DNA of 24,000 nt from Thermaerobacter subterraneus DSM 13965 (GCF_000183545.2 NZ_JH976535.1:773890-797889); one strand, 5' to 3'. Positions 594 to 14,771 are shown, counted from the stretch's first letter. Translations and numbers: made by a program. The notes: generated by a model not told the origin, from the letters alone.

Positions 594-2204
594 CCGCGGC
601 CGCCGCTCGAACCACGGCGCCGCCCGCTCCAGCTGCCCCGCCAGGCGGAAGAGCCGGTCTTCCGCGCCGAAGGGGGCGACGAACTGGATCCCGATGGGCA
701 GGCCCTCCGGCGTCCAGTGAAGAGGCACGGACATGGCGGGCACCCCGGCCAGGTTGGCCAGCTGGGTGAAGGGCGTGGCCGCCAGGTTCTCCAGGGCCAC
801 CTGCTCGAGGATCCCCGCCGCCCGGTACACCCGCCCCGAGCCCAGGATGCCCAGGGCGTTGAGCAGGTTCATCAAACGCTCTTGGGCCGGAGAGGGCTTC
901 AGCTCCCCGACGGCCACCGGCGGCCGGGCGACCGTCGGCGTCATGTAGAGGTCCCACTGCTGGAAGAACCGGCCCAGGGCCCGGGCGGCCTGGTCCCACT
1001 GCTCCAGGGCCTGGCTGAACTCGCCGGCGCTGACCGTCTCCCCGAGGATCCCCAGCATCCGGGTGGCCGGCTCAAGGCGCTTCACCGCCTCGGGTCCGCG
1101 GAGTTCCCGCACCCGCCGGACCTCGGCCGCCACCGTGCCGCAGTACATGGTGAGGTAGCTGCGGGCCAGGGCAAGCCCGTCGATCTCCGGCCGGGCCTCC
1201 ACCACGTGGTGGCCGAGTTCCTCCAACAGGCGGGCCGCCCCCTCCACCGCCTTGACGCACTCGGGATCTACCGGCCGGTCGATGGGGGAGCGGGTGTCTA
1301 CGGCGATGCGCAGCGGCTCGGGGTCCTGGCCGAGTTCGTCCAGATAGGATCGGCGGGGCGGGGCGATGACGTAAGGCGCCCCGGGCTCGGGCGGGGCCAG
1401 CAGGTCCAAGATGGCGGCGCTGTCCCGGACCGACCGGGTGAGGACCCCGTACACCGCGGCGCCGTGCCACATCTGGCCGAAGTCGGGCCCCGTGGGGGTC
1501 CGCCCCCGGCTCGCCTTGAGGCCGAAGAGGCCGCAGTGGGAGGCCGGGATGCGCAGCGAGCCCCCGCCGTCGCCCCCCGAGGCCAGGGGGACCATGCCGG
1601 CCGCCACCGCCGCCGCGGAGCCCCCGCTGGACCCGCCAGGGGTCCGGGAGGGGTCCCAAGGGTTCCGGCACGGGCCGTACAGTTCGGGCTCGGTAAAGGC
1701 CACAAGGCCCAGTTCGGGCGTGTTGGTCTTGCCCAGGATGACGAGCCCGGCGGCCTTGTAGCGCCGGACCGTCTCGGCGTCGTGATCCGGGACGAACCCG
1801 GCATACGCCCGGGAGCCGTGGGTCAGGGGCACCCCGGCCAGGGCCTCGCCCAGGTCCTTGACCAGGAAGGGGACGCCGGTGAAGGGGCCAGGGGCGCCGG
1901 CGCCGGAAGCGCCAGCGGCCCCGCCGGGCGTGCCCTCATCCAGGGCCCGGGCCTGTTCCAGGGCCTGGTCGAACAGGGGGACGACCACGGCATTGAGCCG
2001 GGGGTTGAGCACCTCCACGCGCTCGATGGCCGCCTCGACCACCTCGACCGCCTTGACCTGCCGCGAGCGGATGAGTTCGGCCAGGCCGAGACCGTCGTAC
2101 CGGTCGTATTCCTTGAAACCCACGGCTCGGGTCCCCCGTTCTCCAGAGCGGACTGCGCCGGTCAGGGCAGAACATGCCGCCCCGTCGCCGGCCATGTTCG
2201 CCAT
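585..2204 (-). CDS. amidase-signature family amidase (GatA-like fold)
   Basis: Amidase signature GGSSGGSAAAVAAGMVPLASGGDGGGSLRIPAS, Lys in FLVKDL, GKTNTPE. Start is uncertain: ATG 2204/2195, or in-frame GTG 2123 (VGFKEYDRYDGLGLAELI...), which matches typical amidase N-termini. Confidence 0.85.
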   Translation of the reverse strand: MANMAGDGAACSALTGAVRSGERGTRAVGFKEYDRYDGLGLAELIRSRQVKAVEVVEAAIERVEVLNPRLNAVVVPLFDQALEQARALDEGTPGGAAGASGAGAPGPFTGVPFLVKDLGEALAGVPLTHGSRAYAGFVPDHDAETVRRYKAAGLVILGKTNTPELGLVAFTEPELYGPCRNPWDPSRTPGGSSGGSAAAVAAGMVPLASGGDGGGSLRIPASHCGLFGLKASRGRTPTGPDFGQMWHGAAVYGVLTRSVRDSAAILDLLAPPEPGAPYVIAPPRRSYLDELGQDPEPLRIAVDTRSPIDRPVDPECVKAVEGAARLLEELGHHVVEARPEIDGLALARSYLTMYCGTVAAEVRRVRELRGPEAVKRLEPATRMLGILGETVSAGEFSQALEQWDQAARALGRFFQQWDLYMTPTVARPPVAVGELKPSPAQERLMNLLNALGILGSGRVYRAAGILEQVALENLAATPFTQLANLAGVPAMSVPLHWTPEGLPIGIQFVAPFGAEDRLFRLAGQLERAAPWFERRPRLP

Positions 2205-2258
2205 ATACGTTCCCTGGCAGTGGATTCCTGCCCGCGCTGTCCGGGGCCGGATCTGGTC

Positions 2259-3371
2259 TCACGGGGCGCCCATCGTCAAGCCGGTGCGGCGCAGGTGGAC
2301 GTCCACCTGCACCGAGACCGGCAGGCTCGCGACGCGCCGGCGCCACTGCGGGGCGACGCCCCGCCACGCGGCCGGATCGCGGCGATGCAACTCCAGGCCG
2401 AACCCCACGGGGTCGATCCCCTCCCGGCGGGCCAGCTGCAGCAGCGCCGCCACGTCGCGTCCCACGGCGCGTGCCGCCGCCGCCTGGGCCCGCGGCAGCA
2501 CGGACGTCGTCAGGGGCTCCGTACACCGCCACTCTTCGACGTCCGCTTCGATCCGCACCCGCACGGAGGCCGCCGGCCCGGCGGGCGTCCAGCGGACACT
2601 CCGCCGGCTGCTGCTGCGCACGGCGGTGACCCCGAACCCGCGGTCCGGCGGATCGCCGGGGCAGGGCCACACCAGCCGGTCCACCTCTTGCTGGCCGGTC
2701 AGCCAGTACAGGCCCCGGGTGGCCGGTTCGTCCGCCAGGGCGACCAGGCGCAGGCCGCGGAACAGGGCCACGCGCCGCACCATGGGCTCGGTCGGCGTCG
2801 ACGCGGCGAGATCCACCACGGGCACCGCCGGATCCTCACCCCCGTGGCCCACGGTGCGCAGGAAGGCGTTCAGATCGATGGGTGGGCCGAGACGGGCGGA
2901 GGGACGAAGCATCATCCGCTGGAAGGCGACGAAGCGCGGGGCGCCGAAGGCGGGCTGGAGGCGGTGGAGGAACCGGCCGGCGGGGCTGTCGGTGACGAAC
3001 AGGAAGGCGTTACGACGAAAGGTGTAGCGCCGGGACAGGGTGTCGAGGACGGGCTCGAGGCCCGATCGCGCCAGGTCCCGCCCCACCAGCACCACGTTGA
3101 CGTGGCTCCACAGCATCTCCCGCCCTGCGGCCAGCTCCAGCTGGCGCTGCGCGTCGAGGAGCGACTGGCCTTCGGCCTGGAGCAGCCGGTGGACGACGCT
3201 GCCCGGTTGTTCCCTGGGACCGGTGGTGGGGGCGCCGACGATCTCCACGGTGAGCAGCAGGCGGTCGCTGCGGGTTCGATCGAGGCCCAGCACCGTCACC
3301 ACGGCGGCCTGCTCGGGTTCGATGCGGCCGTAGCAGCCGCCAAGGAAGAGGCCGGCGCAGAGGGCGAGCAT
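2259..3371 (-). other. Ger(x)C lipoprotein-like domain (possible independent cistron from ATG 3371 or GTG 3464)
   Basis: Signal-peptide/lipobox-like segment with the Cys codon at 3333-3335, then sequence typical of GerAC/GerKC. Candidate internal starts lack a clear Shine-Dalgarno. Confidence 0.5.
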
Positions 3372-4718
3372 CGCCAGGGCTGCCGCCCGCCGCGACCTGG
3401 CCGCGGCGCCCCGGACCTCAGAGCCGGAGGGACCCGCTTTCGCAGACGTACCGGATCCGCTCACCTGGGATGACGGAAGCCTTTCACCAGGATCCGGACC
3501 AGGGAGGCGGCCTCCGAGGTCCGAACCAGGGACGCGGCGCAGGCCGGTACGCCCCCCTTCCGGTCCCTCGCGTGGTGGCTCCTCTCCCCCGTTCGTCCTG
3601 GGGGACGCGGTCCGGGGCGTCGGCGGTCGCGGCCGGCCGGACCGGCGTGCCTTGAGGCTCATCCACCCGCCGGCCAGCAGGAAGGCCGTCCCCGCCATGG
3701 ACACCTCCGGGAAGACCCTCTCCACGTGGTGAAGAAGCACCGGGCCGCTGGTGAACCCCACGACGCCCACCCACCCGGCCCCGGCGCCAATCACGGCCGT
3801 CACCACGCCCTGCCATCGCGGCTTCCCGGGGAGGGCCCGGGCCACCGCCGTAGCGGCCGCGGTCAGCAAGAGACCCAGATGGACGAACGTCCCCGTCAGC
3901 CACGCGAACAGCGTGAGGATCTCAAGGCGCTGGAGGAACAGGCTGGCGCGGACCTGACGGATCAGGCTGAGCACCGGGAAAGTCGACCGCGCCACCTCGG
4001 ACACGCCGAGCACTGCGACGGCGGCCGCGGTGTAGGCGACCAGCAGCAGGCCCGACAGGGCCACGGCCAGGGGCAGGGCCCAGCGCAGTCGTCCGGGGTC
4101 CCGCAACCGGCCGCCGGCCGCCAGCACCACGGCCGACGCGCCGGAAAAGGCGAAGGCGACCGGCAGGGCGGTCGCCACCGGACCCACACCCGTTTCCAGG
4201 ACCGGCGTCAGCTCGCGCATGTCCACGTTCCCCGCCAGCACGACGGCAAGGTTGAGCACGCTGGCGCCCACCATCAGGGGGAAGAGCACCTGGCCGCTGC
4301 GGTAGACCGCCTCCAGGCCGTAGGCTGCCAGGACCCAACCCGTCAGCGCCGTCCCGGCGGCGAACACCGCCACCGGCATCTCAGGCAGCACGGTGGCGAA
4401 CACGGTGGTGACCTGGGCGACGAGGACCACCGCCAGGTACGTGACATACCCGGCAAAGCCCGCCGCGAGCAGGCGGTCGCCCCAGCCGGGCCGGTCCCCG
4501 GCCGTCCGCTCGCCCGGCGCCCGCTCCGGCCGGAAGTACAGGGCCCACCAGCACCAGGCCAGGACCATCCCGAGCATCGCCGCCACGCCCACCGCCATCC
4601 AGCCGTCCCGTCCCGCCTTCACCACCACGGGCCGCGGCAGGTACAGCAGCGCCCCCGTGGTCACCGCGATGGTGGCGTTGATGGCGACCTGCAGGGCTTC
4701 GACCCGCTGCGACCTCAT
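2259..4718 (-). CDS. spore germination protein: GerB-type permease and Ger(x)C lipoprotein domain in one uninterrupted frame
   Basis: ATG 4718 overlaps the gerKA stop (ATGA). About 365 aa form a 10-TM GerB/spore-permease-like sequence, followed by an ~85-aa Pro/Gly/Arg/Ser linker. Then come a lipobox-like RRAAALAMLALCAGLFLGGC and a ~355-aa Ger(x)C-like domain. There is no in-frame stop anywhere between 4718 and 2259 (the ORF track shows one open frame). Confidence 0.7.
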   Translation of the reverse strand: MRSQRVEALQVAINATIAVTTGALLYLPRPVVVKAGRDGWMAVGVAAMLGMVLAWCWWALYFRPERAPGERTAGDRPGWGDRLLAAGFAGYVTYLAVVLVAQVTTVFATVLPEMPVAVFAAGTALTGWVLAAYGLEAVYRSGQVLFPLMVGASVLNLAVVLAGNVDMRELTPVLETGVGPVATALPVAFAFSGASAVVLAAGGRLRDPGRLRWALPLAVALSGLLLVAYTAAAVAVLGVSEVARSTFPVLSLIRQVRASLFLQRLEILTLFAWLTGTFVHLGLLLTAAATAVARALPGKPRWQGVVTAVIGAGAGWVGVVGFTSGPVLLHHVERVFPEVSMAGTAFLLAGGWMSLKARRSGRPRPPTPRTASPRTNGGEEPPREGPEGGRTGLRRVPGSDLGGRLPGPDPGERLPSSQVSGSGTSAKAGPSGSEVRGAAARSRRAAALAMLALCAGLFLGGCYGRIEPEQAAVVTVLGLDRTRSDRLLLTVEIVGAPTTGPREQPGSVVHRLLQAEGQSLLDAQRQLELAAGREMLWSHVNVVLVGRDLARSGLEPVLDTLSRRYTFRRNAFLFVTDSPAGRFLHRLQPAFGAPRFVAFQRMMLRPSARLGPPIDLNAFLRTVGHGGEDPAVPVVDLAASTPTEPMVRRVALFRGLRLVALADEPATRGLYWLTGQQEVDRLVWPCPGDPPDRGFGVTAVRSSSRRSVRWTPAGPAASVRVRIEADVEEWRCTEPLTTSVLPRAQAAAARAVGRDVAALLQLARREGIDPVGFGLELHRRDPAAWRGVAPQWRRRVASLPVSVQVDVHLRRTGLTMGAP

Positions 4719-6295
4719 GGCCCGGGCTCCGCCGCCCGCCCGGCGCTCCGCTCCACGGGGACGAAGGGGACCTGCTTGCGGTGCCGCCTCCAGGGCAGGC
4801 GCACCAGGGCGTCTTCCAGCAGCGCCTCGCCGCGCCACGGTGCCAGCGGGGCGAGGAAGGGCCTGCCCACCGACTCCAGGGAGCTCAGGTGCCCGACCAC
4901 GGCGGTCACCCCGACGGCGATGCCGAACAGCCCCAGGGCGCTGCCCAGGAGCAACAACGCGTAGGAAATCAGCCTGAAGGGGACCGTCACGGCAAAGGTC
5001 GGGAGCGAGAGGGTGGCGACGGCCGTCGTCGCGGCCAGCACCACCATCGGGGCGCTGGCCAGTCCGCCCCGCACCATGGCCTCCCCCACCACCAGGGCGC
5101 CCACCACGGAGAGCGCACCGCCGATGCCGCGGGGCATGCGGGCGCCCGCCTCCCGCAGGAGGTCGAAGCCGACGTTCAGGATGATCGCCTCGACCACCGT
5201 GGGATAGGGTACGGCGGCGCGGCTGGTGAGGATCGTGACCAGCAGGTTGGTCGGGATCAGCTCGTGGTGGTAGTTGACGATGGCCACGTACAGCGCCAGG
5301 CCGCTGACGCTGACCAGCACGGCGAACAGGCGCAGCAGTCGCATGGCCGTGCCGAAGGGCCAGCGCAGGTAGTAGTCTTCCGGGCTCTGCAGGAGGTCCC
5401 AGAAGGTCGCCGGGACGATCAGCGCAAAGGGCGTGCCGTCCAGCATCAGGACCACCCGGCCCTCGGCGAGGGCGGCGGTGCACACGTCCGGACGTTCGGT
5501 GCTGCGGTACTGCATGAAGGGGGACCAGGGCCGCCCCGAGAGGAAGGAGGCGAGCTGGCTCGTGTCGACCACGGTGTCGAGGTCCACGGCGGCCAACCGC
5601 CGCCGCAAGGTCTGGACCAGCAACGGGTCGGCTCGGCCGAGCACGTAGAGGAGAGCGCCCCGGCTGTGGCTCAGGCGACCGACCTCGAAGTCCTCGACGC
5701 GCAGGCGATGATCGGCCAGGCGGCGCCGCACGGCGGCCAGGTTGGTGCGGAGCACCTCGGTGAACCCCTCGCGCGGCCCGCGGGTCACCACCTCCGTGGC
5801 CGGTTCCTCGGGCAGGCGGTGTTCGAAGCCGCTGAAGTCGAGGATGAGGGCGCGGTCGACCGAATCCACCAGCACCACGGCACTGCCGCGGTGCAGCTCC
5901 CGCACGACCTCGTCGAAGAGGCGGGCCTGCTGCAGCCGGGTTCCTTGGAGCCCGCGGCGGACGAGCCACCGCACCACCTCGTCCGGGGTGTTCACATCGG
6001 CCGGGATGCTTCCCAGCGGGACCAGCACGAAGCGATGGATCAGTTCGTCGACGGCCAGCCCGTCGATCACCGCCACGGCCACCCGGACCTGGCCCCGCAG
6101 CCGCAGGTGGCGGATGTGCAGGTCGCTGGCATGGCCGAGCAGCGCAGCCAGGCGGCGGGTGGTCTCATCGAGCCGGTGGGAAAGGGGTTCCGCCGCGGCC
6201 CGATCGGCGGCCCAACCGTCCAGGTACGCGCCAAGGCGGCTGCTGGCCGTATGGATCTCTTGCGTGAGCCGGTCCAGCAGGTTGCGGTTGGCCAT
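4715..6295 (-). CDS. spore germination protein, GerA/GerKA family
   Basis: GerA-family hallmarks: YRSTERPD, GRVVLMLDGTPFALIVPATFWDLLQSPEDYYLRWPFGT, and a C-terminal block of TM helices. Start is taken at ATG 6295 (MANRNLLDRL...). The 83 upstream in-frame codons are Arg/Pro/Gly-rich junk. No obvious SD before 6295. Confidence 0.85.
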   Translation of the reverse strand: MANRNLLDRLTQEIHTASSRLGAYLDGWAADRAAAEPLSHRLDETTRRLAALLGHASDLHIRHLRLRGQVRVAVAVIDGLAVDELIHRFVLVPLGSIPADVNTPDEVVRWLVRRGLQGTRLQQARLFDEVVRELHRGSAVVLVDSVDRALILDFSGFEHRLPEEPATEVVTRGPREGFTEVLRTNLAAVRRRLADHRLRVEDFEVGRLSHSRGALLYVLGRADPLLVQTLRRRLAAVDLDTVVDTSQLASFLSGRPWSPFMQYRSTERPDVCTAALAEGRVVLMLDGTPFALIVPATFWDLLQSPEDYYLRWPFGTAMRLLRLFAVLVSVSGLALYVAIVNYHHELIPTNLLVTILTSRAAVPYPTVVEAIILNVGFDLLREAGARMPRGIGGALSVVGALVVGEAMVRGGLASAPMVVLAATTAVATLSLPTFAVTVPFRLISYALLLLGSALGLFGIAVGVTAVVGHLSSLESVGRPFLAPLAPWRGEALLEDALVRLPWRRHRKQVPFVPVERSAGRAAEPGP

Positions 6296-6542
6296 AGCAG
6301 GTGTAGTATGTGCAGTCGCGGACCGTGCCGCCTGCCCTGGTGGGGTGCCGGAGGAGCCGCTGGCAGGGACCGGTGGCCCCGAAGGCGGCCGAGCCCCGGC
6401 GGCGAACCGGGCTGGGGCCGCAGGCCACCGACCTTGTCGCCGCAAGCCGGGGCCTGCACGGTGGGGGCAGCGAGCGGCTGGCCCCAGGACCTGGAGGTTC
6501 TTGCCCTGCCCGCAGGGAAACAACCTGCGGGAGGTGGACGGC

Positions 6543-6833
6543 ATGATCGTCCTGGTGGCCCGCTACGTCACCCGCCCCGGCATGGCGGACCGGGTCGAGG
6601 CCGCCGTGCGGGAGATGATCACCCTCTCCCGCCAGGAAGAGGGCTGCCTGCGCTACGAGGTGAACCGCTCGGTGGAGCGGGAGAACGAGTTTCTGCTCTA
6701 CGAGGTGTACCGCGATGAGGCGGCGCTGGAGGCCCACCGGCAGTCGCCCCACTTTCGCCGCATCGTCCAGGAGACCATCGTGCCCCTGCTGGAGCAGAGG
6801 GAGCGCCAGTTCTACCGGCCGGTGACGCCGTGA
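6543..6833 (+). CDS. antibiotic-biosynthesis-monooxygenase (ABM) domain protein / putative quinol monooxygenase
   Basis: ATG 6543 is preceded by GGGAGGTGG at about 6-nt spacing. The 96-aa product MIVLVARY...LRYEV...FLLYEVYRDEAALEAHRQSPHF is the typical ABM ferredoxin-like pattern. Confidence 0.8.
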   Translation: MIVLVARYVTRPGMADRVEAAVREMITLSRQEEGCLRYEVNRSVERENEFLLYEVYRDEAALEAHRQSPHFRRIVQETIVPLLEQRERQFYRPVTP

Positions 6834-6858
6834 CGGCCGCGGTGCTGGGGGTGAGGCT

Positions 6859-7053
6859 GTGCTTGCCTGGCAGGTCGAGCGGCTGGGGCCGCCGCGGGAG
6901 GTCCTGCGCCTGACGGACGTGCCCGAACCGGTGGTGGAACCCGGCACGGTGAAGATCCGAGTGGAAGCGGCGGGCTTTGCCGGCGGCGGCATTCCCCAGG
7001 TGCCCGCCAACACGTACTGGTGAAGAACTACAGCGTGGTGGGGATTCACTGGG
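6859..7053 (+). pseudogene. NADPH:quinone oxidoreductase (MDR family) remnant with an internal deletion and a frameshift
   Basis: GTG 6859 follows GGTGAGG. The N-terminus LAWQVERLGPPREVLRLTDVPEPVVEPGTVKIRVEAAG is GroES-like. It runs straight into FAGGGIPQVPANTY, a C-terminal Rossmann-end motif, and stops at TGA 7021. After a 1-nt frame slip the sequence continues as VKNYSVVGIHWG. Confidence 0.55.
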
Positions 7054-7569
7054 GTTCATGCCATCGGCTACTATGCCACGGCCCTGCTGGCCACCCGGGC
7101 CGGAGCCAGCTTCCCCGTGGCTCTGCTGGGTGTCGCCGGGGTCACCGGGACCGTGAGGTATGTCATGGGACTGCCGGCCCTGCGCCTCCACGGCCATTAC
7201 CTGGCCCTGGCCAGCATCAGCTTCGGCGCGGCGGTGCCGGAGATCATCCTGCAGTGGGACACGCTGACGGGTGGCCATGCCGGGGTCCTAGTGCCGCGGC
7301 CCGCCTTGGGTCCTCGGGAGCTGGCCGGCGATCGGCAGGTGTACTACCTGGCCTGGGGCGCCGCCTTCGTGCTGATGGCCGTGGCCGGCAACCTGCTCCG
7401 CACCCGGCCGGGGCGGGCCCTGATGGTCCTGCGGGAAAGCGACGTGCTGGCCCAGTCCCTGGGCATCAACCTGGTGACTTGCAAGACCCTGGCCTTCACC
7501 CTGAGCGCCGTCTACGCCGGGATCGCCGGGGGCCTTTACGCCTAACTGGTGGGCTTCATCAGCCGTTAC
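7054..7569 (+). pseudogene. livM: branched-chain amino acid ABC permease LivM, 5'-truncated fragment with a premature TAA, interrupted by an IS
   Basis: ...AIGYYATALLAT...GLPALRLHGHYLALASISFG...LTGGHAG...RPGRALMVLRESDVLAQSLGINLVTCKTLAFTLSAVYAGIAGGLYA is LivM-like. TAA at 7543-7545 sits where LivM proteins have His/Tyr. The frame continues LVGFISRY up to the IS junction. About the first 100 codons are absent. Confidence 0.75.
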
Positions 7570-8527
7570 CTGAAACATCGTCATCTGTTTCAGGCAGCCG
7601 ATCCTTGCGGATCGGCGGTGCCGGTCTTACCCGGCGATGCGCCGGTGCCGGTTTCCCGCTTCCTCCGGGATCGCCTGCCTTGCGGCAGGTCTTCCATCCC
7701 GTCCACGGGCGTTTTCCGTCTCCGGACCACTCCCGGCGACGGCGGCCGCCAGGGCCGCGAGATTCCGGGCCGCGTTTTCGTCCCGATCCAGCACGAGCCC
7801 GCATTCCTCACAGCGGAAAACACGCTGCGAAAGCGGCAGCGACGGCTTGATCGCGCCGCACCGGGAGCAACGCTTGCTACTGGGATAGAAGCGCGGCGCT
7901 TCGACCAGGACCGCCCCGTGCCAGGCGCACTTGTATTGGAGCTGGCGGCGGATCTCCGCCATGGCCGCATCGGCCAGCGCCCGGGCGAGCCGGCGGTTCT
8001 GGACCATGCCCGCCACGTGCAGCTGTTCGACCACCACCACGCCATAGGTGGTCGCCAGGTGGTGCGTCAGCTTGTGAAGGGCGTCCTGGCGGATATTCCG
8101 GACCCGCGCATGGAGCCGGGCCAGCCGGCGGCGGGCCTTTTGCCACCCCCGGCTGCCCTTCTGGCGGCGGGCCAGGGCGCGGCTGGACCGGGCGACCTTC
8201 TGGAGGGCTTTTTCAAGGGGCCGCGGGTTCGGCCACACCTCGCCCGTCGAAAGGACCGCCAGGTGCCGCACCCCCGCGTCCACGCCCACCACCCGCCAGG
8301 GGAACCGGGGGCAGCCCGGCTGCCGCTCCACCTCGCAGGTGAAGCTGATGAACCACCGGCCGCCTTCCCGCGACACCGTGGCCGAGAGGATCCGGGCCGT
8401 CCCCGCCTGGATGCGCCGGAGCAGGGCCGTGGTCGGCTCGTGGGTCTTCACCCGCCCGATCCGGGGCAGGACGACGTGGCTTTGGTCGTCCACCCGGATC
8501 GCGCCGGTGGTGAACCGCACCGACTCC
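7563..8527 (-). repeat. direct repeat copy 1 (IS right end plus 3' two-thirds of tnpB)
   Basis: Aligns by hand to 12963-13917 at roughly nine-tenths identity in the stretches compared. The length difference of 10 nt is fully explained by a 9-nt hairpin-loop insertion here plus a 1-nt deletion in copy 2. Confidence 0.8.
7564..7740 (-). ncRNA. candidate TnpB omega-RNA (reRNA) scaffold, copy 1 (5' limit approximate)
   Basis: Four stem-loops lie between the tnpB 3' end and the element tip: 7569-7594, 7597-7616, 7631-7645 and 7674-7689. All are conserved in position in copy 2. The location overlaps the tnpB stop at 7627-7629, as in characterised TnpB systems. Confidence 0.4.
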
Positions 8528-8652
8528 AGCTCCCGCACCACGGCGGGGAACCAGCGGTGGGGCGGTCGGGTCGAACCGGGCCTCCGGCGGCCGGTACGGC
8601 GCGGGGCGGCACGGCGCGCCGGCCCTTGGGAGGCTGCTGGCCGACCCGTCAA
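7627..8652 (-). CDS. tnpB: RNA-guided endonuclease TnpB (IS605 OrfB family), 5'-truncated copy with an uninterrupted ORF
   Basis: RuvC-I VVGVDAGV, RuvC-II VVVVEQL, Zn-ribbon CSRCG...FRCEECG, RuvC-III DRDENAARN. It lacks the N-terminal LQAYRFALDPTP...FNWGL segment seen in copy 2. The TTG start at 8652 overlaps the TGA of the upstream 211-aa gene (TTGA). Confidence 0.8.
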   Translation of the reverse strand: MTGRPAASQGPARRAAPRRTGRRRPGSTRPPHRWFPAVVRELESVRFTTGAIRVDDQSHVVLPRIGRVKTHEPTTALLRRIQAGTARILSATVSREGGRWFISFTCEVERQPGCPRFPWRVVGVDAGVRHLAVLSTGEVWPNPRPLEKALQKVARSSRALARRQKGSRGWQKARRRLARLHARVRNIRQDALHKLTHHLATTYGVVVVEQLHVAGMVQNRRLARALADAAMAEIRRQLQYKCAWHGAVLVEAPRFYPSSKRCSRCGAIKPSLPLSQRVFRCEECGLVLDRDENAARNLAALAAAVAGSGPETENARGRDGRPAARQAIPEEAGNRHRRIAG

Positions 8653-9284
8653 AGGCGGGTGTGGACGTACCCCCGGGTTTCAAGCCAGTGGCCCACGGCA
8701 AAAAGGCCAACGGCGAGGACGCCCACAGCGGGTACCTTGCCCAGGTCACTCCAGCGATCGTACAGGCCGAGCTGAAAGATGCTCACGGGCAGGTTGGGCG
8801 CGGTCAACATGAAACCCACACAATACGTTACGTTGAAAAGTAGAGGGAGAAAAGTGTTTCGAACCACAAGGGCAAGGCAATAGGCTGCCGCGATGAGAGC
8901 CGCACTCTGGACGGCGACGGCGATAAAGAGCAGCCACAGGCGCCCAAAACGCGTCGAGAGATACAGGAACGAGACGGCGCACAAGGCGACGAACAGGACC
9001 CAACAGATGATCATCCTGGCGAAGAGGGCACTCCGGCGGCCGGCGTAGACGAGCAGCAGTTCCCGAGCCGGCGAGTCCACGTATTCCCGCAGGATCAGCA
9101 GGGGCCACCAGGGAGCGAAGACGGGAATCAACAACTGGCATACCGTCGCAACGATGCTTGGATCCTGACCTTCCGCGGTCGCCGCGAGCACGGTCAGAGG
9201 CGTCAACCCCACCACGATGGCGGGCGGCACCAGGCCGTAAAGGCCAAGATTCTTCATTTCGAGGTAAAAGGCCCGACTCAGCAT
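8649..9284 (-). CDS. six-TM membrane protein, probable ABC-2/BcrB-like permease component
   Basis: 211 aa with about six hydrophobic helices. ATG 9284 overlaps the ATPase stop (ATGCTGA), implying translational coupling. Confidence 0.7.
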   Translation of the reverse strand: MLSRAFYLEMKNLGLYGLVPPAIVVGLTPLTVLAATAEGQDPSIVATVCQLLIPVFAPWWPLLILREYVDSPARELLLVYAGRRSALFARMIICWVLFVALCAVSFLYLSTRFGRLWLLFIAVAVQSAALIAAAYCLALVVRNTFLPLLFNVTYCVGFMLTAPNLPVSIFQLGLYDRWSDLGKVPAVGVLAVGLFAVGHWLETRGYVHTRL

Positions 9285-10126
9285 AGCCCATGGATCAGCC
9301 CCATGTAGGCGTCCTCCAGTGTCGGCGCAACGGCGGGGAACCGCTGAGGCTGCCGTGTGACGACGCGGTGCTGCACGCGACCCGAGACCTCGGTGATTCG
9401 CACGGTGAAGTGAGGCCCGGCGATGTCCTGCGCATTCTCCGCATCGACCTGGTAGACCTTCCCCTCCGCCAGGCGGCGCAGTTCCTCGCAGCTGCCCTGG
9501 AACAGAACCTGTCCCCGGTCTAGGATGATGACCCTGTCACAACAGGCATCGACATCCTCCACCAGATGCGTCGAGAGGAGAATCGCCCGGCCTTGTTTAA
9601 TCGTGTTGACCAGGTTCTTGAACCGGGTCCGTTCGGCCGGGTCCAGACCCGCCGTCGGTTCGTCGAAGAGCAACAACCGGGGGCTACCCAGCAGGGCCTG
9701 GGCTATCCCGGCCCGCCGGATCATGCCGACCGACAGCGCCTTGACCCGATCGCCAGCCCGATCCGCCAGATTCACCGCTTCAAGCACCCTCTCGATTTCA
9801 CCGGCCAGCTGTTGCCGGGGTATGCCCTTCAGGGAACCTACGTAAGCCATCATCTCGTACAGGGTGAGTTCACGAAACATGCCATAGGTTTGGGGAAGAT
9901 ATCCCATTTCCTGATAGAACACCTTCGACTTTTCGATGGGCACGCCCTGGTAAAGCACCTGGCCCTGGTCGGGATGAATCAGGCCCACCATGCAGCGAAG
10001 CAAGGTCGTCTTCCCCGCGCCGTTCGGGCCTAACAGGCCGTAGACGCCCGCCTCCAGCCGGAGAGAGATGTTCTTCAGCACCTGTCGCCGTCCGAAACGC
10101 TTGCTCACCTGGTTGATCGCCATCAT
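9278..10126 (-). CDS. ABC transporter ATP-binding protein (ABC-2/exporter type)
   Basis: Walker A GPNGAGKTT, Q-loop LPQ, signature variant LSVGMIRR, Walker B LLLFDEPTAGLD, H-loop STH. The start overlaps the stop of the upstream gene (ATGA). Confidence 0.9.
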   Translation of the reverse strand: MMAINQVSKRFGRRQVLKNISLRLEAGVYGLLGPNGAGKTTLLRCMVGLIHPDQGQVLYQGVPIEKSKVFYQEMGYLPQTYGMFRELTLYEMMAYVGSLKGIPRQQLAGEIERVLEAVNLADRAGDRVKALSVGMIRRAGIAQALLGSPRLLLFDEPTAGLDPAERTRFKNLVNTIKQGRAILLSTHLVEDVDACCDRVIILDRGQVLFQGSCEELRRLAEGKVYQVDAENAQDIAGPHFTVRITEVSGRVQHRVVTRQPQRFPAVAPTLEDAYMGLIHGLC

Positions 10127-12204
10127 TCCCCGAGTTCCTCCCTCAAGGCCCGCTCGATGAAGTCAAGGGGTTCCCCACCTTCGCCGGAGGTCAGATGATC
10201 ATAAAACCTGCGACGGTGCTTCGTCTTTTGCGGCGATTCCAAAAACAGATAACGAGCTGCCTGGTCCAGGACCGTCGCCGCCAGCTCTTCCTGGCGCATG
10301 GACTCGGCGCTAGGGCCGGATTCTGTAGATGAAGCCGACTGCTGGCGCAGTCGCCGAACTTCCTGGATGTCAGACAAGATTTTGGCCGGGTCCAACCTTG
10401 CAGACGGATCGACCGGGGCACCCTCTGGGATCCCAACAAGGTAATCTACGTATTGGCTCACAAACCTAAAGTTTTCTGCAGACACTCCCGCTTGAAACTG
10501 GGTCATGATGATGCTACGGGCCAGTTCGGCGCCACTGCCGCATGATTGGGCCGTCACATGGTCGCTCATGATCACGACATCTTCCGTATTTGAATTGAGG
10601 CCAAAACTCCGCGGTACCTGAAAGAACTTCTTCTCAGAAAAACCCCGGATCAATGCCGGCATCGGCTGCTCAAGTTCCGTATAGACGCGGTCCAGGATAT
10701 GTTCGGCCCGGCGCAAGCACTCACGGGTAGGCCGGTCGTTGCGCGTGGGTTCTGCGTAGATTCCGTTCTCCACCTCGTCGTCAAGCCCAGCGAACAGCGA
10801 AAGGCCATTCGTACGACCGGCGAAGACGTTGTCGTGGCCGTCCAGATTCGAAAAGACCTTAAGGTTCGACCGCACTTTAACCGTGTATTCGCTTTCGTTA
10901 GATGACAAGTTGATCACGTATCCGTACCGGTCGGAGTCCCAGATCTTGAGTCGACCGGGTTTCGGGTAGTACGCAAAATACCCCGGCAGGGTGATGGCCT
11001 GGGCATTCGCATAGTATTTCGGTGACTTCCCATGGTACCGAAACGTGACGGTCCTCGCTCCAGCGAGTGGGCCCACGGTGACGTAGTCCCCATCGCGGAT
11101 AAAACGCACTTTGCCAGTTTCCGTGTGCACGTCCGTGATAATGTATCCGTGGTAAAGGGTGAAATCGTACCGGTCAAGATCAGGGTTGTCAAGGGTCACC
11201 CTGACCTCGGCACGCAACTCGTTGCTGATTGTGAACTTCATGTCATACGCCTCCACCTGAAATCCGGGCTCCAGTCGCTGGGAGTCTGGTTCGTCCTGCC
11301 CCATGTAGTAGATTGGATCCGCGTACGGAAACGACTGCATCCGCCGGTCCATCGCCAGGGTCGACCCGCGGTAGGAGAACAAAACGACGGCAACAGATGC
11401 CGTCACAATGGTTGCGGCGAGCAAGACATTCTTAACTTGACGACTACGGGCCGCGGTGTAACCGATTAAGGCGAGGGAAAAGACCATCCAAAAGAGAGCC
11501 AGACCCCACCGAACTGGTTCCAGTGGAAATCCATAGATGTCGGGAACGGCAAAGGCGTTGCCGATCTCATGGGGTACCAGGCGTACAAAGTCCTTAATGG
11601 AATAAAGCAGATTCTCGGTCCATGACGATCCAAAAAGAAGAAGGGGGATTCGGAAAGGAACCTCGGTGAACGTCGTGTTGAGAAGGATCAGGCCAACGGT
11701 TAGGCCATAAACCGCAAGCCGCCTCCCCCCGAAGACGGATCCAAACACGATACCGAGCAACCCGGCAATGAGAAAGGATAGCCATGAATACAGTATGCAT
11801 GTTTTAATGAGATGTATGAGCACTGGGTCGAAGTCCAAACCCGAAAGGGCATAAAACAATGCGCTCAACATTAGATAGAGGACGAAAGGAATTGTCGAGA
11901 TAACCAACAGACACCCGACGAGGCCAGCATACACCCTGGCTAGACCATACTTTGTCGTTTTGAAGGATTCGTCCAATGAGTGGTCGCGAAGGGTACGAGC
12001 CAGGTTATAAAAACAATAGATGAACAACGCCACAATAAAAATGTTAGGCTGGAAAACGGACTCTAACGCAGGGAATAGAGCTCGATGGCGCAAAAAGATT
12101 CGGAGATGATATCCCCAGTAGAGCGCCAGTGCTAGATGTGTAGTAATGAACAGGATGCTTCGATCTCTGGCACGCCAGAATATTCGAAACAAAGGAACAA
12201 TCAT
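10123..12204 (-). CDS. 693-aa polytopic membrane protein (permease-like, about 8 TM) fused to a ~400-aa soluble beta-rich plus helical domain
   Basis: GGAGG (12215-12219 on the minus strand) lies 10 nt upstream of ATG 12204. Residues 1-285 are hydrophobic helices. Residues 290-693 are hydrophilic (FQVEAYDMKFTISNELRAEVRVTLDNPDLDRYDFTLYHGYIITDV...). AT-richer codon usage than the host genes. Confidence 0.85.
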   Translation of the reverse strand: MIVPLFRIFWRARDRSILFITTHLALALYWGYHLRIFLRHRALFPALESVFQPNIFIVALFIYCFYNLARTLRDHSLDESFKTTKYGLARVYAGLVGCLLVISTIPFVLYLMLSALFYALSGLDFDPVLIHLIKTCILYSWLSFLIAGLLGIVFGSVFGGRRLAVYGLTVGLILLNTTFTEVPFRIPLLLFGSSWTENLLYSIKDFVRLVPHEIGNAFAVPDIYGFPLEPVRWGLALFWMVFSLALIGYTAARSRQVKNVLLAATIVTASVAVVLFSYRGSTLAMDRRMQSFPYADPIYYMGQDEPDSQRLEPGFQVEAYDMKFTISNELRAEVRVTLDNPDLDRYDFTLYHGYIITDVHTETGKVRFIRDGDYVTVGPLAGARTVTFRYHGKSPKYYANAQAITLPGYFAYYPKPGRLKIWDSDRYGYVINLSSNESEYTVKVRSNLKVFSNLDGHDNVFAGRTNGLSLFAGLDDEVENGIYAEPTRNDRPTRECLRRAEHILDRVYTELEQPMPALIRGFSEKKFFQVPRSFGLNSNTEDVVIMSDHVTAQSCGSGAELARSIIMTQFQAGVSAENFRFVSQYVDYLVGIPEGAPVDPSARLDPAKILSDIQEVRRLRQQSASSTESGPSAESMRQEELAATVLDQAARYLFLESPQKTKHRRRFYDHLTSGEGGEPLDFIERALREELGE

Positions 12205-12219
12205 GGATGCAAGGCCTCC

Positions 12220-12255
12220 AAAACCATAAACAGGGGCCCATACCCCTGTTTATGG
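12220..12255 (-). terminator. intrinsic terminator/attenuator hairpin between the small secreted-protein gene and the ABC genes
   Basis: On the minus strand: CCATAAACAGGGG-tatggg-CCCCTGTTTATGG (13-bp perfect stem, 6-nt loop) followed by TTTT, then the GGAGG of the next gene. Confidence 0.55.
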
Positions 12256-12280
12256 TGAGTCATTGTTAATTTAAAAGCAA

Positions 12281-12667
12281 CTAGTTCGACACTGTTCCCC
12301 TACCGATGCAATCGCTGTACCAATACATGCAATTCAGTTGAACACGCCACAGGAGGGCACCAGAACGCGAAGAACTTCCGTAGGCACCTGACCCGATGGC
12401 CATCAGCGACGTGCGTTCAGTCTGCCAACCTGTACCATCAGAGTACTGTAGGTCGATATACAACGGATGTCCGGAGGAAGAATAGTTGTAACCATCGTAT
12501 GATGCGCCGTAATTCGATGTAATCGCTGACGACCGCACACTGGTTTGTCCTGTGCTGATGTATACGGTCACTGAAGCAGCAAAGACAGTAACGGTAAGCG
12601 CTATAACGAAGATGAACGTCAACAGCAAGGCTACCGGCCTGACCCGCACGGAGAACAACGCTCTCAT
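12281..12667 (-). CDS. small secreted Ser/Gly/Tyr-rich protein (candidate secreted toxin/bacteriocin-like factor), family unknown
   Basis: GGAGGTG lies 6 nt upstream of ATG 12667. Sec-type signal: MRALFSVRVR, hydrophobic core, VFA|AS. The ~97-aa mature part has no Lys and a single Cys pair, CMYWYSDC. It is the first gene of the cassette. Confidence 0.7.
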   Translation of the reverse strand: MRALFSVRVRPVALLLTFIFVIALTVTVFAASVTVYISTGQTSVRSSAITSNYGASYDGYNYSSSGHPLYIDLQYSDGTGWQTERTSLMAIGSGAYGSSSRSGALLWRVQLNCMYWYSDCIGRGTVSN

Positions 12668-12692
12668 GCACCACCTCCGGGGTGTTAATGTG

Positions 12693-12956
12693 CTACCACT
12701 GGATAATTTCGGCAGGAAGGCTCCGTTTCCTTCTTAGAGAGGTCACTGGTGGCTCCCTTTCGCGTTGGATGTGACGGCTCGAAGCGAGGACGTGTACTGC
12801 TGACTGCTGGATGCAGGATGAGCGCACCTCCAGCCAGCCGCCGGGCCGCGATGGATGCCGTTCGTGGGCGGCGAGGGCGGCCAGCACGTCGTCCACCTCG
12901 CGGATGCACTGGGCCACCCCTCCGCAGGTTGCGCACGTGTAGGTGAACTCCGCCAC
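12693..12956 (-). CDS. hypothetical small ORF (possibly only an N-terminal remnant of the gene that flanked IS copy 2)
   Basis: GTG 12956 lies 7 nt from the IS right end. The N-terminus AEFTYTCATCGGVAQCIREVDDVLAALAAHERH is high-GC and protein-like. The C-terminal half runs into lower-GC promoter-region DNA and looks non-coding. Confidence 0.25.
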   Translation of the reverse strand: MAEFTYTCATCGGVAQCIREVDDVLAALAAHERHPSRPGGWLEVRSSCIQQSAVHVLASSRHIQREREPPVTSLRRKRSLPAEIIQW

Positions 12957-12962
12957 GCCGTA

Positions 12963-13917
12963 CCGTTACCTGAAACTGTTTCAGGCAGCCGATCCTCACG
13001 GATCGACGGTGCCGGTCTTACCCGGCCATGAGCCGGTGCCGGCTTTCCGTTTCCTCCGGGACCGCCTGCCGGGCGGCAGATCTTCCGCCCCGTCTACGGG
13101 CGTTTCACGTCTCCGGGCCACTCCCGGCGACGGCGGCCACCAAGGCCGCGAGATTCCGGGCCGCGTTTTCGTCCCGATCCAGCACGAGCCCGCATTCCTC
13201 ACAGCGGAAGGTGCGTTCCGAAAGTGGGAGCGATGCTTTCACCACCCCGCACCGGGAGCACCGCTTGCTGCTCGGGTAAAAGGGCGGTGCTTCGACCAGG
13301 ACCGCCCCGTGCCAGGGACACTTATACCTGAGCTGGCGGCGGATCTCCGCCAGGGCGGCATCGGCCAGCACCCGGGCCAGCCGCCGGTTCTTCATCATGC
13401 CCGCCGCATTCAGCTGTTCGACGACCACCACGCCGTAGGTGCTCGCGAGGTGGTGTGTCAGCTTGTGAAGGGCATCCTGGCGGAGATTCCGGGCTCGCGC
13501 ATGGATCTGGGCCAGCCGGCGGCGGGCCTTTTGCCACCCCCGGCTGCCCTTCTGGCGGCGGGCCAGGGCGCGGCTGGACCGGGCCAGCCGTTTTAAGTTC
13601 ATCTCCAGCGCTCGGGCATTGGGCAAGACCTCCCCGGTGGAGAGCACCGCCAGGTGCTTGACGCCCGCATCGACGCCGACGACCTTCCAGGGGAACCGGG
13701 GCCGGCCCGGCGGCCGCTCCACCTCACAGGTGAAGCTGACGAACCACCGGCCCCTTCCCGTGACACCGTGGCGGACAGGATGCGGGCCGTTCCCGCTTCG
13801 ATGCGCCGGAGCAGGGCCGTGGTGGGCTCGTGGGTCTTCACCCGCCCGATCCGGGGCAGGACGACGTGGCTTTGGTCGTCTACCCGGATCGCGCCGGTGG
13901 TGAACCGCACCGACTCC
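12963..13917 (-). repeat. direct repeat copy 2 (IS right end plus 3' two-thirds of tnpB)
   Basis: Partner of 7563-8527. High similarity stops abruptly after ...GTGGTGAACCGCACCGACTCC in both copies. Confidence 0.8.
12964..13135 (-). ncRNA. candidate TnpB omega-RNA (reRNA) scaffold, copy 2 (5' limit approximate)
   Basis: Stem-loops at 12969-12985, about 12989-13006, 13022-13036 and 13066-13079 match copy 1 in position, with different loop sequences. Confidence 0.4.
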
Positions 13918-14305
13918 CGCCCCCGGCCCTTCTTCCGGAGCCGGGGAAACCCCACCCGGCGCCCCTTGCGTTTACCCTGTCGGCTTTTGGACCCGTTCTG
14001 CAGGGCCCGGGCGAGCCCGTCCAGACCGGAGGAGTAGGCTTCCTTCGAGTTCTCCCGCCACCAGGGGGCGACGCGGTGCTTTTGCCGGTTCCACTCCCGC
14101 CGCAGGGCGGGGAGGGTCCACGGCACCTCGACGTCTTCACCCGGGCGTGGGCTTCCAGGCGCTCCTTCACCAGGGCCAAACCCCAGTTGAAGGCGAAGCG
14201 GCGGGCGCCCACGTGGGAGGCCAGCGCCCGTTCCTGGCGGGGTGTGGGGTCGAGTGCGAAGCGGTACGCCTGCAACACACGCACGGGCAGGCCCCCCAAA
14301 ATCAT
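13018..14305 (-). pseudogene. tnpB: tnpB (RNA-guided endonuclease TnpB), full length but with two frameshifts and a premature TGA
   Basis: The N-terminal frame (14305 down) reads VRVLQAYRFALDPTPRQERALASHVGARRFAFNWGLALVKERLEAH. The frame slips near 14140 (CCCGGG run) into ...GEDVEVPWTLPALRREWNRQKH...SATVSREG. A 1-nt deletion near 13745 relative to copy 1 shifts into ...PRFPWKVVGVDAGV...CEECGLVLDRDENAARN. TGA at 13105-13107 replaces the GAA of copy 1. The ancestral TAA is at 13018-13020. Confidence 0.8.
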
Positions 14306-14313
14306 CCAGGGCC

Positions 14314-14342
14314 AGCATACCAGAACGTATGTTCGATTTCAA
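14314..14342 (-). promoter_or_regulatory. sigma-A-like promoter in the IS left end driving tnpB
   Basis: On the minus strand: TTGAAA (14342-14337), a 17-nt spacer, then TATGCT (14319-14314). The -10 ends only 8 nt before ATG 14305, so the mRNA would be leaderless or start at the downstream GTG. Confidence 0.3.
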
Positions 14343-14387
14343 AGAGCGGCAGACGGGCGGAGGGGAGGGGATGCGAAAATTTGATGA

Positions 14388-14771
14388 CGTTACTTCAACC
14401 TGACCTCGTCCATCGCCCTGGTGGCCCTGCTGCAGGTATTCACCCGGATGCCGGGCTGGCTGTCCGTGGTCGAGGGCGCCATCATCGTCCTCTTTGCCAT
14501 GTTCCTTCCCGGCGGGCTGGCGTCGCTGCCGGCCCGCTGGCGGACCTGGCGGGCCTGGGGACATGTCCTGCCGGCCGGGGCCGGCCTCCCGCGGCCGTCC
14601 CCTGCCACGGCGGCGGAGGCGGCCGCCGGCTCCCCCGCCGCCGGGGAGCCGGGTCACGGAACCCGCCCGGCCGGACCCACCGGCCGGTCGACCTGGACCG
14701 GTGGGGACGAACCAGCCCCCCGCCTGGCCGGCCCGGAAGGAGGGAGCCCCGATGTCCCTCCTCGCCGTTGA
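14388..14771 (+). pseudogene. livM: LivM 3' fragment (continuation of the livM interrupted at 7569)
   Basis: RYFNLTSSIALVALLQVFTRMPGWLSVVEGAIIVLFAMFLPGGLASL is a LivM C-terminal-like sequence. It is in frame with the 7054-7569 fragment once the insertion is removed. A low-complexity tail overlaps the livG start. Confidence 0.7.

Follow-up and report, generated by a model that had tools for sequence, protein, structure and literature searches.

In a 24,000-nucleotide (nt) segment of the Thermaerobacter subterraneus DSM 13965 chromosome (NZ_JH976535.1:773890-797889, 70% GC, hereafter the window), the livM gene is split by a 6.8-kb block at about 7563-14391. This block is probably a fossil compound element in which a four-gene ATP-binding cassette (ABC) transporter cassette is surrounded by two copies, independently diverged and both lacking tnpA, of a tnpB insertion sequence (IS) of the IS607 family; it sits at a canonical IS607 GG target in livM. 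Both tnpB copies lie on the minus strand in the same orientation, at 7563-8537 (outer) and 12963-14391 (inner), with the cargo between them (8538-12962). They are about 88% identical across ~970 bp, and their homology ends at about 8537. Read from left to right, the block consists of a right end (RE), a truncated tnpB copy, the cargo, a further RE, a full copy and a left end (LE), the whole set within livM. A preliminary description of this DNA, made from the sequence alone, had proposed this architecture of one left end and two right ends, with truncated copy, cargo and full copy following each other inside livM and a four-gene cassette of lower GC content between the right ends. All of this was confirmed, the cassette genes having 46-63% GC against ~70% in the flanks.

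The same description had assigned the element to the IS200/IS605 family, with hairpin ends and a Y1/HUH TnpA acting in trans, and this assignment had to be given up. The closest full-length relatives are the 422-amino-acid (aa) TnpBs of T. composti and Thermaerobacter sp. FW80, which are 88-93% identical and are named IS607 by NCBI. The closest (P0184), 92% identical to the reconstructed inner copy, scored 526 bits on the IS607_TnpB profile NF038280 (cut-off 350) and 252 bits on IS200_TnpB (NF038281), below its cut-off of 425. The truncated outer copy reached 342 bits on NF038280 over profile positions 116-425. In relatives with 72-85% TnpB identity (L003-L007, L049, L050 and L073) an overlapping gene precedes tnpB; in L005, a contig from a Clostridiales metagenome-assembled genome (MAG), this gene (7426-8016) encodes a serine transposase, matching NF033518 with 218 bits (cut-off 110) as well as Pfam Resolvase. 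IS607 elements encode their TnpA, a serine recombinase with a MerR-like HTH and a resolvase domain, upstream of tnpB and overlapping it; neither window copy contains a tnpA, and the T. composti (L086) and FW80 (L087) copies do not either. Since tnpA is absent from the window copies yet present in relatives, they read as non-autonomous, tnpA-less derivatives.

The element ends point in the same direction. IS607 elements have a GG target and GG termini, make no target duplication and carry short direct repeats in their ends instead of hairpins, their chemistry being serine recombination at a GG core via a circle (PMC6188088). In the LE of the T. composti copy, the short direct repeats TGAGAACAG and CGTTTCT each occur twice, and a terminal GG also starts both the T. 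composti and the FW80 copy. No terminal inverted repeat between LE and RE was present among the longest 25 of 62 inverted pairs, and the intact LE (L086 2859-3000) folded no better than its shuffles (z +1.1, with 178 of 200 shuffles at least as good). By their TnpB scores and the serine-recombinase tnpA of their relatives, the window copies are thus assigned to IS607 and not to IS200/IS605. As a separate observation, the Clostridiales contig carries a complete IS200/IS605 element, with a Y1 tnpA and its own tnpB, at 9392-11053, about 140 nt past the RE of its IS607 element, so that both families of TnpB transposons adjoin each other there.

We set the true ends of the element from two copies at unrelated loci, one in T. 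composti between dapA and the RNase J gene and the other in FW80. The complete element measures 1475 bp (L086 2859-4333) and runs from GG followed by TTGAGAACAGCT to GTTTCAGGTAAC followed by GG. The empty site was taken from a syntenic metagenomic contig (L088), in which qor is followed by genes for a binding protein, a thiolase and a ligase, then by livH, livM, livG, livF and acyl-CoA dehydrogenase onward. In the orientation of the element this site reads ...GGTGAAGTCGAAGG-GG-CTGATGAA... (also given as ...GAAGGGG/CTGATG), and LivM of Thermaerobacter sp. PB12/4term (P0064, 88% identical) is likewise uninterrupted across it (GFISPFDFNLTSSI). In the window, the LivM frame stops after ...GFIS at 7561-7564 and picks up at 14392 (FNLTSSI...), which confirms the break and resumption noticed in the preliminary description. 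On the RE side the sequence is ...GGTAAC-GG-CTGATGAAGCC, and the outer RE adjoins livM exactly at the GG, which we read as an exact IS607-type junction. On the LE side, where GGTTGAAGT is directly followed by AACGTCATCAAAT, livM ends 6 nt short of this same site and the IS begins at its coordinate 41, the window LE starting at TCATCAAAT. The LE has lost 40 nt here and livM 6 nt, in all 46-48 nt depending on how the shared GG core is counted. The GG, one of the two TGAGAACAG repeats and both copies of CGTTTCT lay in the lost LE terminus; a deletion of 46-48 nt has therefore eliminated two livM codons along with the GG core and the end of the LE, where most of the repeats were located.

Accordingly, the insertion is not precise, contrary to what had been claimed, and removal of the insert together with one CGTTAC does not restore livM: the joined halves read GFIS-RY-FNL, one codon shorter than every orthologue. 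The repeated CGTTAC is coincidental. Its left occurrence belongs to the conserved IS terminus (...GGTAACGG), and the right one arises from an LE-internal AACG joined to livM by the deletion; for this reason CGTTAC was rejected both as a target duplication and as a target motif. As for the termini formerly placed at both edges, the RE terminus is exact at the GG of 7563-7564, while the T. composti and FW80 copies put the true LE end 40 nt beyond 14388-14393. The right edge is indeed the LE upstream of a tnpB start, minus these terminal 40 nt, and comparison with the empty site shows that the two livM fragments do flank the same site, although two codons have been deleted on the LE side.

We then considered the right ends. 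The hairpin at 7569-7594 (CCTGAAAC/GTTTCAGG) next to the tnpB 3′ end, reported earlier as an IS200/IS605-type end, is present but corresponds to the terminal stem of an omega-RNA, a structured RNA of about 175 nt. Rfam RF03015 matches both REs, the outer with 76 bits and the other with 68.8 bits, and an alignment of 11 relatives contains compensatory changes in 23 of 51 pairs, those of the terminal stem included. At the outer RE, identity to the T. composti and FW80 copies is 93-98% over the last 180 nt. The recurrence of the terminal sequence at 12963 was also seen, with a 9-nt deletion in the terminal hairpin loop of the inner RE (~12976). The omega-RNA scaffold terminates in ...AACGG adjoining the flank; an experimentally studied IS607-family omega-RNA ends in ...UCGG at the same position (bioRxiv 10.1101/2023.11.20.567912). 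The livM sequence that adjoins the outer RE, running leftwards from 7562, would serve as its guide, with GGGG plus CTGATGAAGCCCACC as the predicted target, and the intact outer RE could at most still yield an omega-RNA whose guide matches livM.

Two further features were observed in the REs of relatives. Four of them (L004, L006, L070 and L073) carry the terminal motif GGCAACGG in two copies spaced 39 nt apart, one in the penultimate omega-RNA hairpin loop and the other at the true end; the doubling is possibly an alternative crossover site, or else a sequence constraint common to RNA and recombinase. One of these four (L073) also shows a GC-rich palindromic insertion, about 20-25 nt long as judged by eye (...GTCGCCTCCGGCGAC...), in one omega-RNA stem-loop relative to the other copies.

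Both tnpB copies have decayed. The outer one keeps the last ~980 bp of the element, with the RuvC and zinc-finger part in frame and no indels relative to the T. composti copy, and lacks the N-terminal ~115 residues (of 431 model positions). A 341-aa frame is still open here (7627-8652, minus strand); its first ~45 residues derive from the high-GC spacer, and it is possibly a chimeric open reading frame (ORF). The inner copy, formerly described as a full tnpB, is of full length but is a pseudogene: three-frame translation and an indel map against the T. composti copy placed 1-nt deletions at ~14142 and ~13755, and a TGA at 13105-13107 stops the frame early. As it stands now, the block is incapable of transposition.

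The two copies also differ strongly from each other. Derived sites common to both number 11, against 66 unique to the inner copy and 49 unique to the outer; about 12 of these 49 lie at the junction, leaving ~36. The window copies are as distant from each other as from the copies of other species, which eliminates an in-situ duplication of the 3′ kb and shows that they diverged independently. No clear recombination switch or gene-conversion tract was found between them, patches of identity following conservation across all copies. In columns 720-780, the T. composti and FW80 copies are 83% identical to each other, while the inner copy is 97% identical to the former and the outer copy 95% to the latter. 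A third T. subterraneus tnpB copy exists (P0291). Tandem insertion of a second IS at a regenerated GG was rejected as the simplest history, the inner-RE flank containing no LE sequence.

The cargo comprises four co-oriented genes (8649-12667, minus strand; Table 1). Gene 3, the ATPase, is DrrA/GldA-like in NCBIfam, under the equivalog cut-offs, and gene 4 is probably an ABC-2-type permease whose position after the ATPase is conserved in T. marianensis and in a Syntrophomonadaceae MAG (L090). For the 693-aa protein of gene 2, identity is 100% with a T. subterraneus protein and 86% with Tmar_1308 of T. marianensis. The 128-aa protein of gene 1, with a putative signal peptide read by eye at its N-terminus, is 54% identical (E 8e-42) to the product of a 127-aa gene lying upstream of the homologue of gene 2 in the Syntrophomonadaceae MAG. 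Neither the 693-aa nor the 128-aa protein matched a Pfam or NCBIfam family. The MAG contains the 127-aa, 704-aa, ATPase and permease genes with no tnpB nearby, and the cassette is a conserved four-gene module that other Bacillota carry without tnpB. We infer that it is foreign to T. subterraneus and was acquired from a Bacillota lineage of lower GC content. In the MAG (5385-11576) the module lies directly downstream of genes for an extracytoplasmic function (ECF) sigma factor, a DUF4367 anti-sigma-like protein and a DUF6147 protein, a context which suggests envelope-stress-type regulation.

In T. marianensis (L082, CP002344) three of the four genes are found at another chromosomal locus, window 8538-12224 aligning to 13667-9981 of that locus with 92.9% identity (blastn). 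This copy lacks the 128-aa gene and has no intact IS alongside; an IS256-like (Transposase_mut) fragment precedes it (9567-9851). The homology stops exactly at window 8538, which is the breakpoint of the truncated tnpB. At L082 13658-13684, a 26-nt stretch composed of the last 9 nt of the shared block and the next 17 nt aligns to tnpB at the matching coordinate, with a score of 31 against 22.2 +/- 2.8 for shuffles (~3 standard deviations, SD). This gives a weak hint that the junction between cassette and truncated tnpB may be older than the insertion into livM. A metagenome scan with the cassette-end sequence common to T. subterraneus and T. marianensis gave 0 matches, and a plasmid search with the cargo returned generic ABC-ATPase matches only. 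The inner-RE flank contains an 87-aa ORF (12693-12956, MAEFTYTCATCGG...), the start of which lies 8 nt from the RE; it matched no Pfam or NCBIfam family, and a metagenome scan recovered no relative.

From this anatomy we infer an order of events and candidate agents of the insertion. At a donor stage, one IS copy would have stood just upstream of the cassette flank, with a second copy downstream whose 5′ third had already been lost at the cassette boundary. What then entered livM would have been the stretch that begins with the LE of the upstream copy and ends with the RE of the downstream one, by one of two routes: either an IS607 serine transposase supplied in trans paired the LE with the distal RE, and a circle was excised and integrated at the GG, or the IS-bracketed interval recombined homologously with a simple IS resident at that GG. 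Decay would have followed. It removed the end of the LE together with 6 nt of livM, left the inner tnpB with two frameshifts and a stop, and took the loop from the inner RE; livM itself lost the 5′ part and 22 codons and gained a nonsense codon. The preliminary description had likewise offered two histories, cargo capture by use of an alternative RE and crossover into a resident IS; both survive, and the junctions are predicted equally by each. Both require a donor in which IS, flank, cassette and truncated IS were already arranged in this order.

Movement of the block as a unit, with a serine transposase acting in trans to join the LE of the inner copy to the outer RE and a 6.8-kb circle delivered to the livM GG, is a serious possibility, though short of a probable one, and would imply that a tnpB-only IS mobilised cargo through an alternative RE. 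The exact meeting of outer RE and livM at the GG, with the LE within 6 nt of the same site, speaks for it. So does the contrast between a well preserved outer RE and an inner RE deprived of 9 nt of its terminal loop, ATGACGATG, which by eye resembles the GTCATC motif in the LE. Moreover, both T. composti and FW80 carry solo tnpB elements with these ends in multiple copies (a 26-member cluster, at different loci), implying mobilisation in trans, and serine recombinases are established to work on directly oriented sites at any distance (PMC6188088). However, the composite was seen at no second site, no tnpA was found in the window, the required LE terminus is now absent so that the reaction cannot be reconstructed, and every junction is explained equally well by recombination into a resident IS. 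This last history, in which a simple IS already occupied the livM GG and an incoming segment of IS, flank, cassette and truncated IS recombined with it, we also hold to be quite conceivable without calling it probable. The exchange would have been either a double crossover (on the left in the LE and 5′ tnpB, on the right in 3′ tnpB) or, with a circular donor, a single crossover of the Campbell type; in each case the cargo would end up within the resident element. It predicts exactly the order of truncated copy, cargo and full copy, needs no transposase and has at its disposal homology of ~520 nt on the left and ~970 nt on the right with long identical runs. IS copies of the family are moreover visibly mosaic (columns 720-780), suggesting recombination among copies. 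On the other hand, the two copies are only ~88% identical and show no clear switch point, and the donor must again already hold an IS-bracketed cassette. A 5.4-kb circle without replication or integration genes would be ad hoc, and for this reason we prefer the linear double crossover.

That the locus was created in the assembly, unrelated loci being misjoined through IS repeats, is highly improbable. The IS is repeated in the genome, as the third copy demonstrates, and short-read contigs do break at repeats. However, a Logan contig from an independent assembly (L001, SRR3926791, 4522 bp) corresponds to window 8498-13019 with 100% identity and crosses both cargo/IS junctions, reaching 40-60 nt into each IS copy; because it enters both copies, the inner junctions are not assembly artefacts. 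In addition, a 12% difference between the copies makes their confusion unlikely, and the outer RE and the LE flank one and the same livM site.

Several points weigh against the interpretation of the block as a fossil compound element. Neither metagenome searches by pattern and by protein nor a plasmid search turned up the composite, or any of its diagnostic junctions, a second time, so that the 6.8-kb unit, looked for at other sites, was found at none; nor did these searches reveal a strain with a simple IS at the livM GG. No tnpA was seen within the window, and the two insertion routes predict the same outcome at every junction examined. The idea that the cassette/tnpB junction predates the livM insertion depends on the 26-nt T. 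marianensis match, only ~3 SD above shuffles. Finally, sequencing errors are in principle conceivable as the source of the frameshifts in the inner copy, since no more than 60 nt of the inner IS lie within the independent contig. A still more specific history, that livM records a natural case of an IS607 serine transposase acting in trans on tnpB-only elements, pairing the LE of one copy with the RE of a second, 5′-truncated copy and so moving a 6.8-kb compound element with its ABC-transporter cassette, the omega-RNA at the outer RE then drawing a guide from the new flank and the cargo coming under the TnpB-guided homing and retention that normally serve the IS alone, appears to us rather unlikely.

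The window copies resemble IS607 elements and their solo tnpB derivatives in the IS607_TnpB score and the serine transposase of close relatives, in a terminal and target GG with no target duplication, as read on the RE side, in the short direct repeats of the LE, and in a tnpB 3′ end and RE that encode a structured omega-RNA ending in ...ACGG beside the flank. Unlike a normal 1.48-kb member of the lineage, they are tnpA-less and defective and bracket 4.4 kb of unrelated genes. With IS200/IS605 elements they share a TnpB with omega-RNA at the RE, the lack of terminal inverted repeats and the existence of solo tnpB derivatives mobilised in trans. In contrast to these, the IS200_TnpB score is below the cut-off, the transposase of relatives is a serine recombinase and not Y1/HUH, the LE forms no significant hairpin, where IS200/IS605 elements have subterminal imperfect hairpins at both ends that are recognised as single-stranded DNA, and insertion is at GG as opposed to a 4-5-nt motif 5′ of the LE.

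Cargo bracketed by IS copies is a classical arrangement, following the logic of Tn9 and Tn10. Like those compound transposons, the livM block has one IS twice around passenger genes of foreign composition, with its outermost ends, the LE in eroded form, mapping to a single target site. It differs from them in that the flanking ISs are of the serine-recombinase/TnpB type, not DDE, and one copy is 5′-truncated, which leaves one LE and two REs; movement as a unit is one of two possible histories for the livM block. Cargo in TnpB transposons is reported to be rare, branch Ser-3 being an example of elements that carry it (PMC10691335). These elements and the livM block have in common a TnpB lineage associated with serine recombinases and extra genes between transposon ends. 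The published cases, however, are recurrent gene associations inside a single element, whereas here the cargo lies between two IS copies, was seen once, and elsewhere occurs as a cassette without tnpB. The block is an ordinary IS-bracketed gene island built from non-autonomous IS607 tnpB elements, decayed and seen at a single locus.

ISs bearing TnpB are usually minimal. Should an IS607 transposase be able to use a distal RE, the abundant solo tnpB elements could occasionally package neighbouring genes and place them under RNA-guided retention. The locus shows that one LE and two REs with foreign genes between them do arise naturally at a canonical GG target. It is a lead for comparative and experimental work and no evidence for a new mechanism, recombination with a resident IS being an equally good origin. 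The correction from IS200/IS605 to IS607 bears on the design of any mobilisation test.

Table 1. Coordinates of the IS copies, cargo genes and livM remnants in the window
Feature	Position	Strand	Basis or remark
Outer RE/livM GG core (CC on + strand), IS607-type crossover site	7563..7564	-	Relatives all end ...AACGG, then diverge
Outer RE, omega-RNA scaffold, near consensus, intact; terminal hairpin 7569-7594	7563..7737	-	Rfam RF03015 match 7593-7662
5′-truncated tnpB (outer copy)	7627..8537	-	IS coordinates ~498-1475; Pfam OrfB_IS605 and Cas12f1-like_TNB
High-GC spacer from permease stop to truncated tnpB; part of block shared with T. marianensis	8538..8648	-	blastn
Cargo gene 4, 211-aa polytopic membrane protein	8649..9284	-	Weak ABC2_membrane_3 match, E 0.006
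Cargo gene 3, ABC transporter ATPase, 282 aa	9278..10126	-	Pfam ABC_tran, E 3.5e-30
Cargo gene 2, 693-aa membrane protein	10123..12204	-	No Pfam/NCBIfam family
Cargo gene 1, 128-aa protein with hydrophobic N-terminus	12281..12667	-	Terminator-like hairpin follows
Inner-RE flank, GC climbing towards IS	12668..12962	-	Absent from T. marianensis locus
Inner RE, omega-RNA scaffold, more diverged	12963..13137	-	Rfam RF03015 match 12984-13053
Full-length tnpB pseudogene (inner copy)	13024..14284	-	Pfam HTH_OrfB_IS605 and OrfB_IS605 on fragments
Truncated LE	14285..14391	-	Matches IS coordinates ~41-142 of T. composti and FW80 copies
livM pseudogene, middle part up to insertion	7052..7562	+	81% DNA identity to L088 8343-8856
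livM pseudogene, 3′ part, resuming at ACTTCAAC	14392..14560	+	Orthologue alignment

The translation of the joined livM parts matches Pfam BPD_transp_2. The 5′ third of the gene is gone and an in-frame TAA is present at 7543-7545. In the 3′ part (window 14404-14420), a 22-aa in-frame deletion relative to all orthologues (ALVA[MIVFGG...ALVA]LLQ) lies between short direct repeats. Read together, the TAA and this deletion show livM to be an old pseudogene. The loss extends beyond livM: window 6865-7051, compared with 1346-8342 of the syntenic empty-site contig, reveals that about 6.9 kb of the operon is gone in T. subterraneus. The lost stretch comprises the 3′ part of qor, the genes for the solute-binding protein, the thiolase and the AMP-dependent ligase, livH and the 5′ end of livM, and what remains is an N-terminal stub of the quinone oxidoreductase fused to mid-livM.

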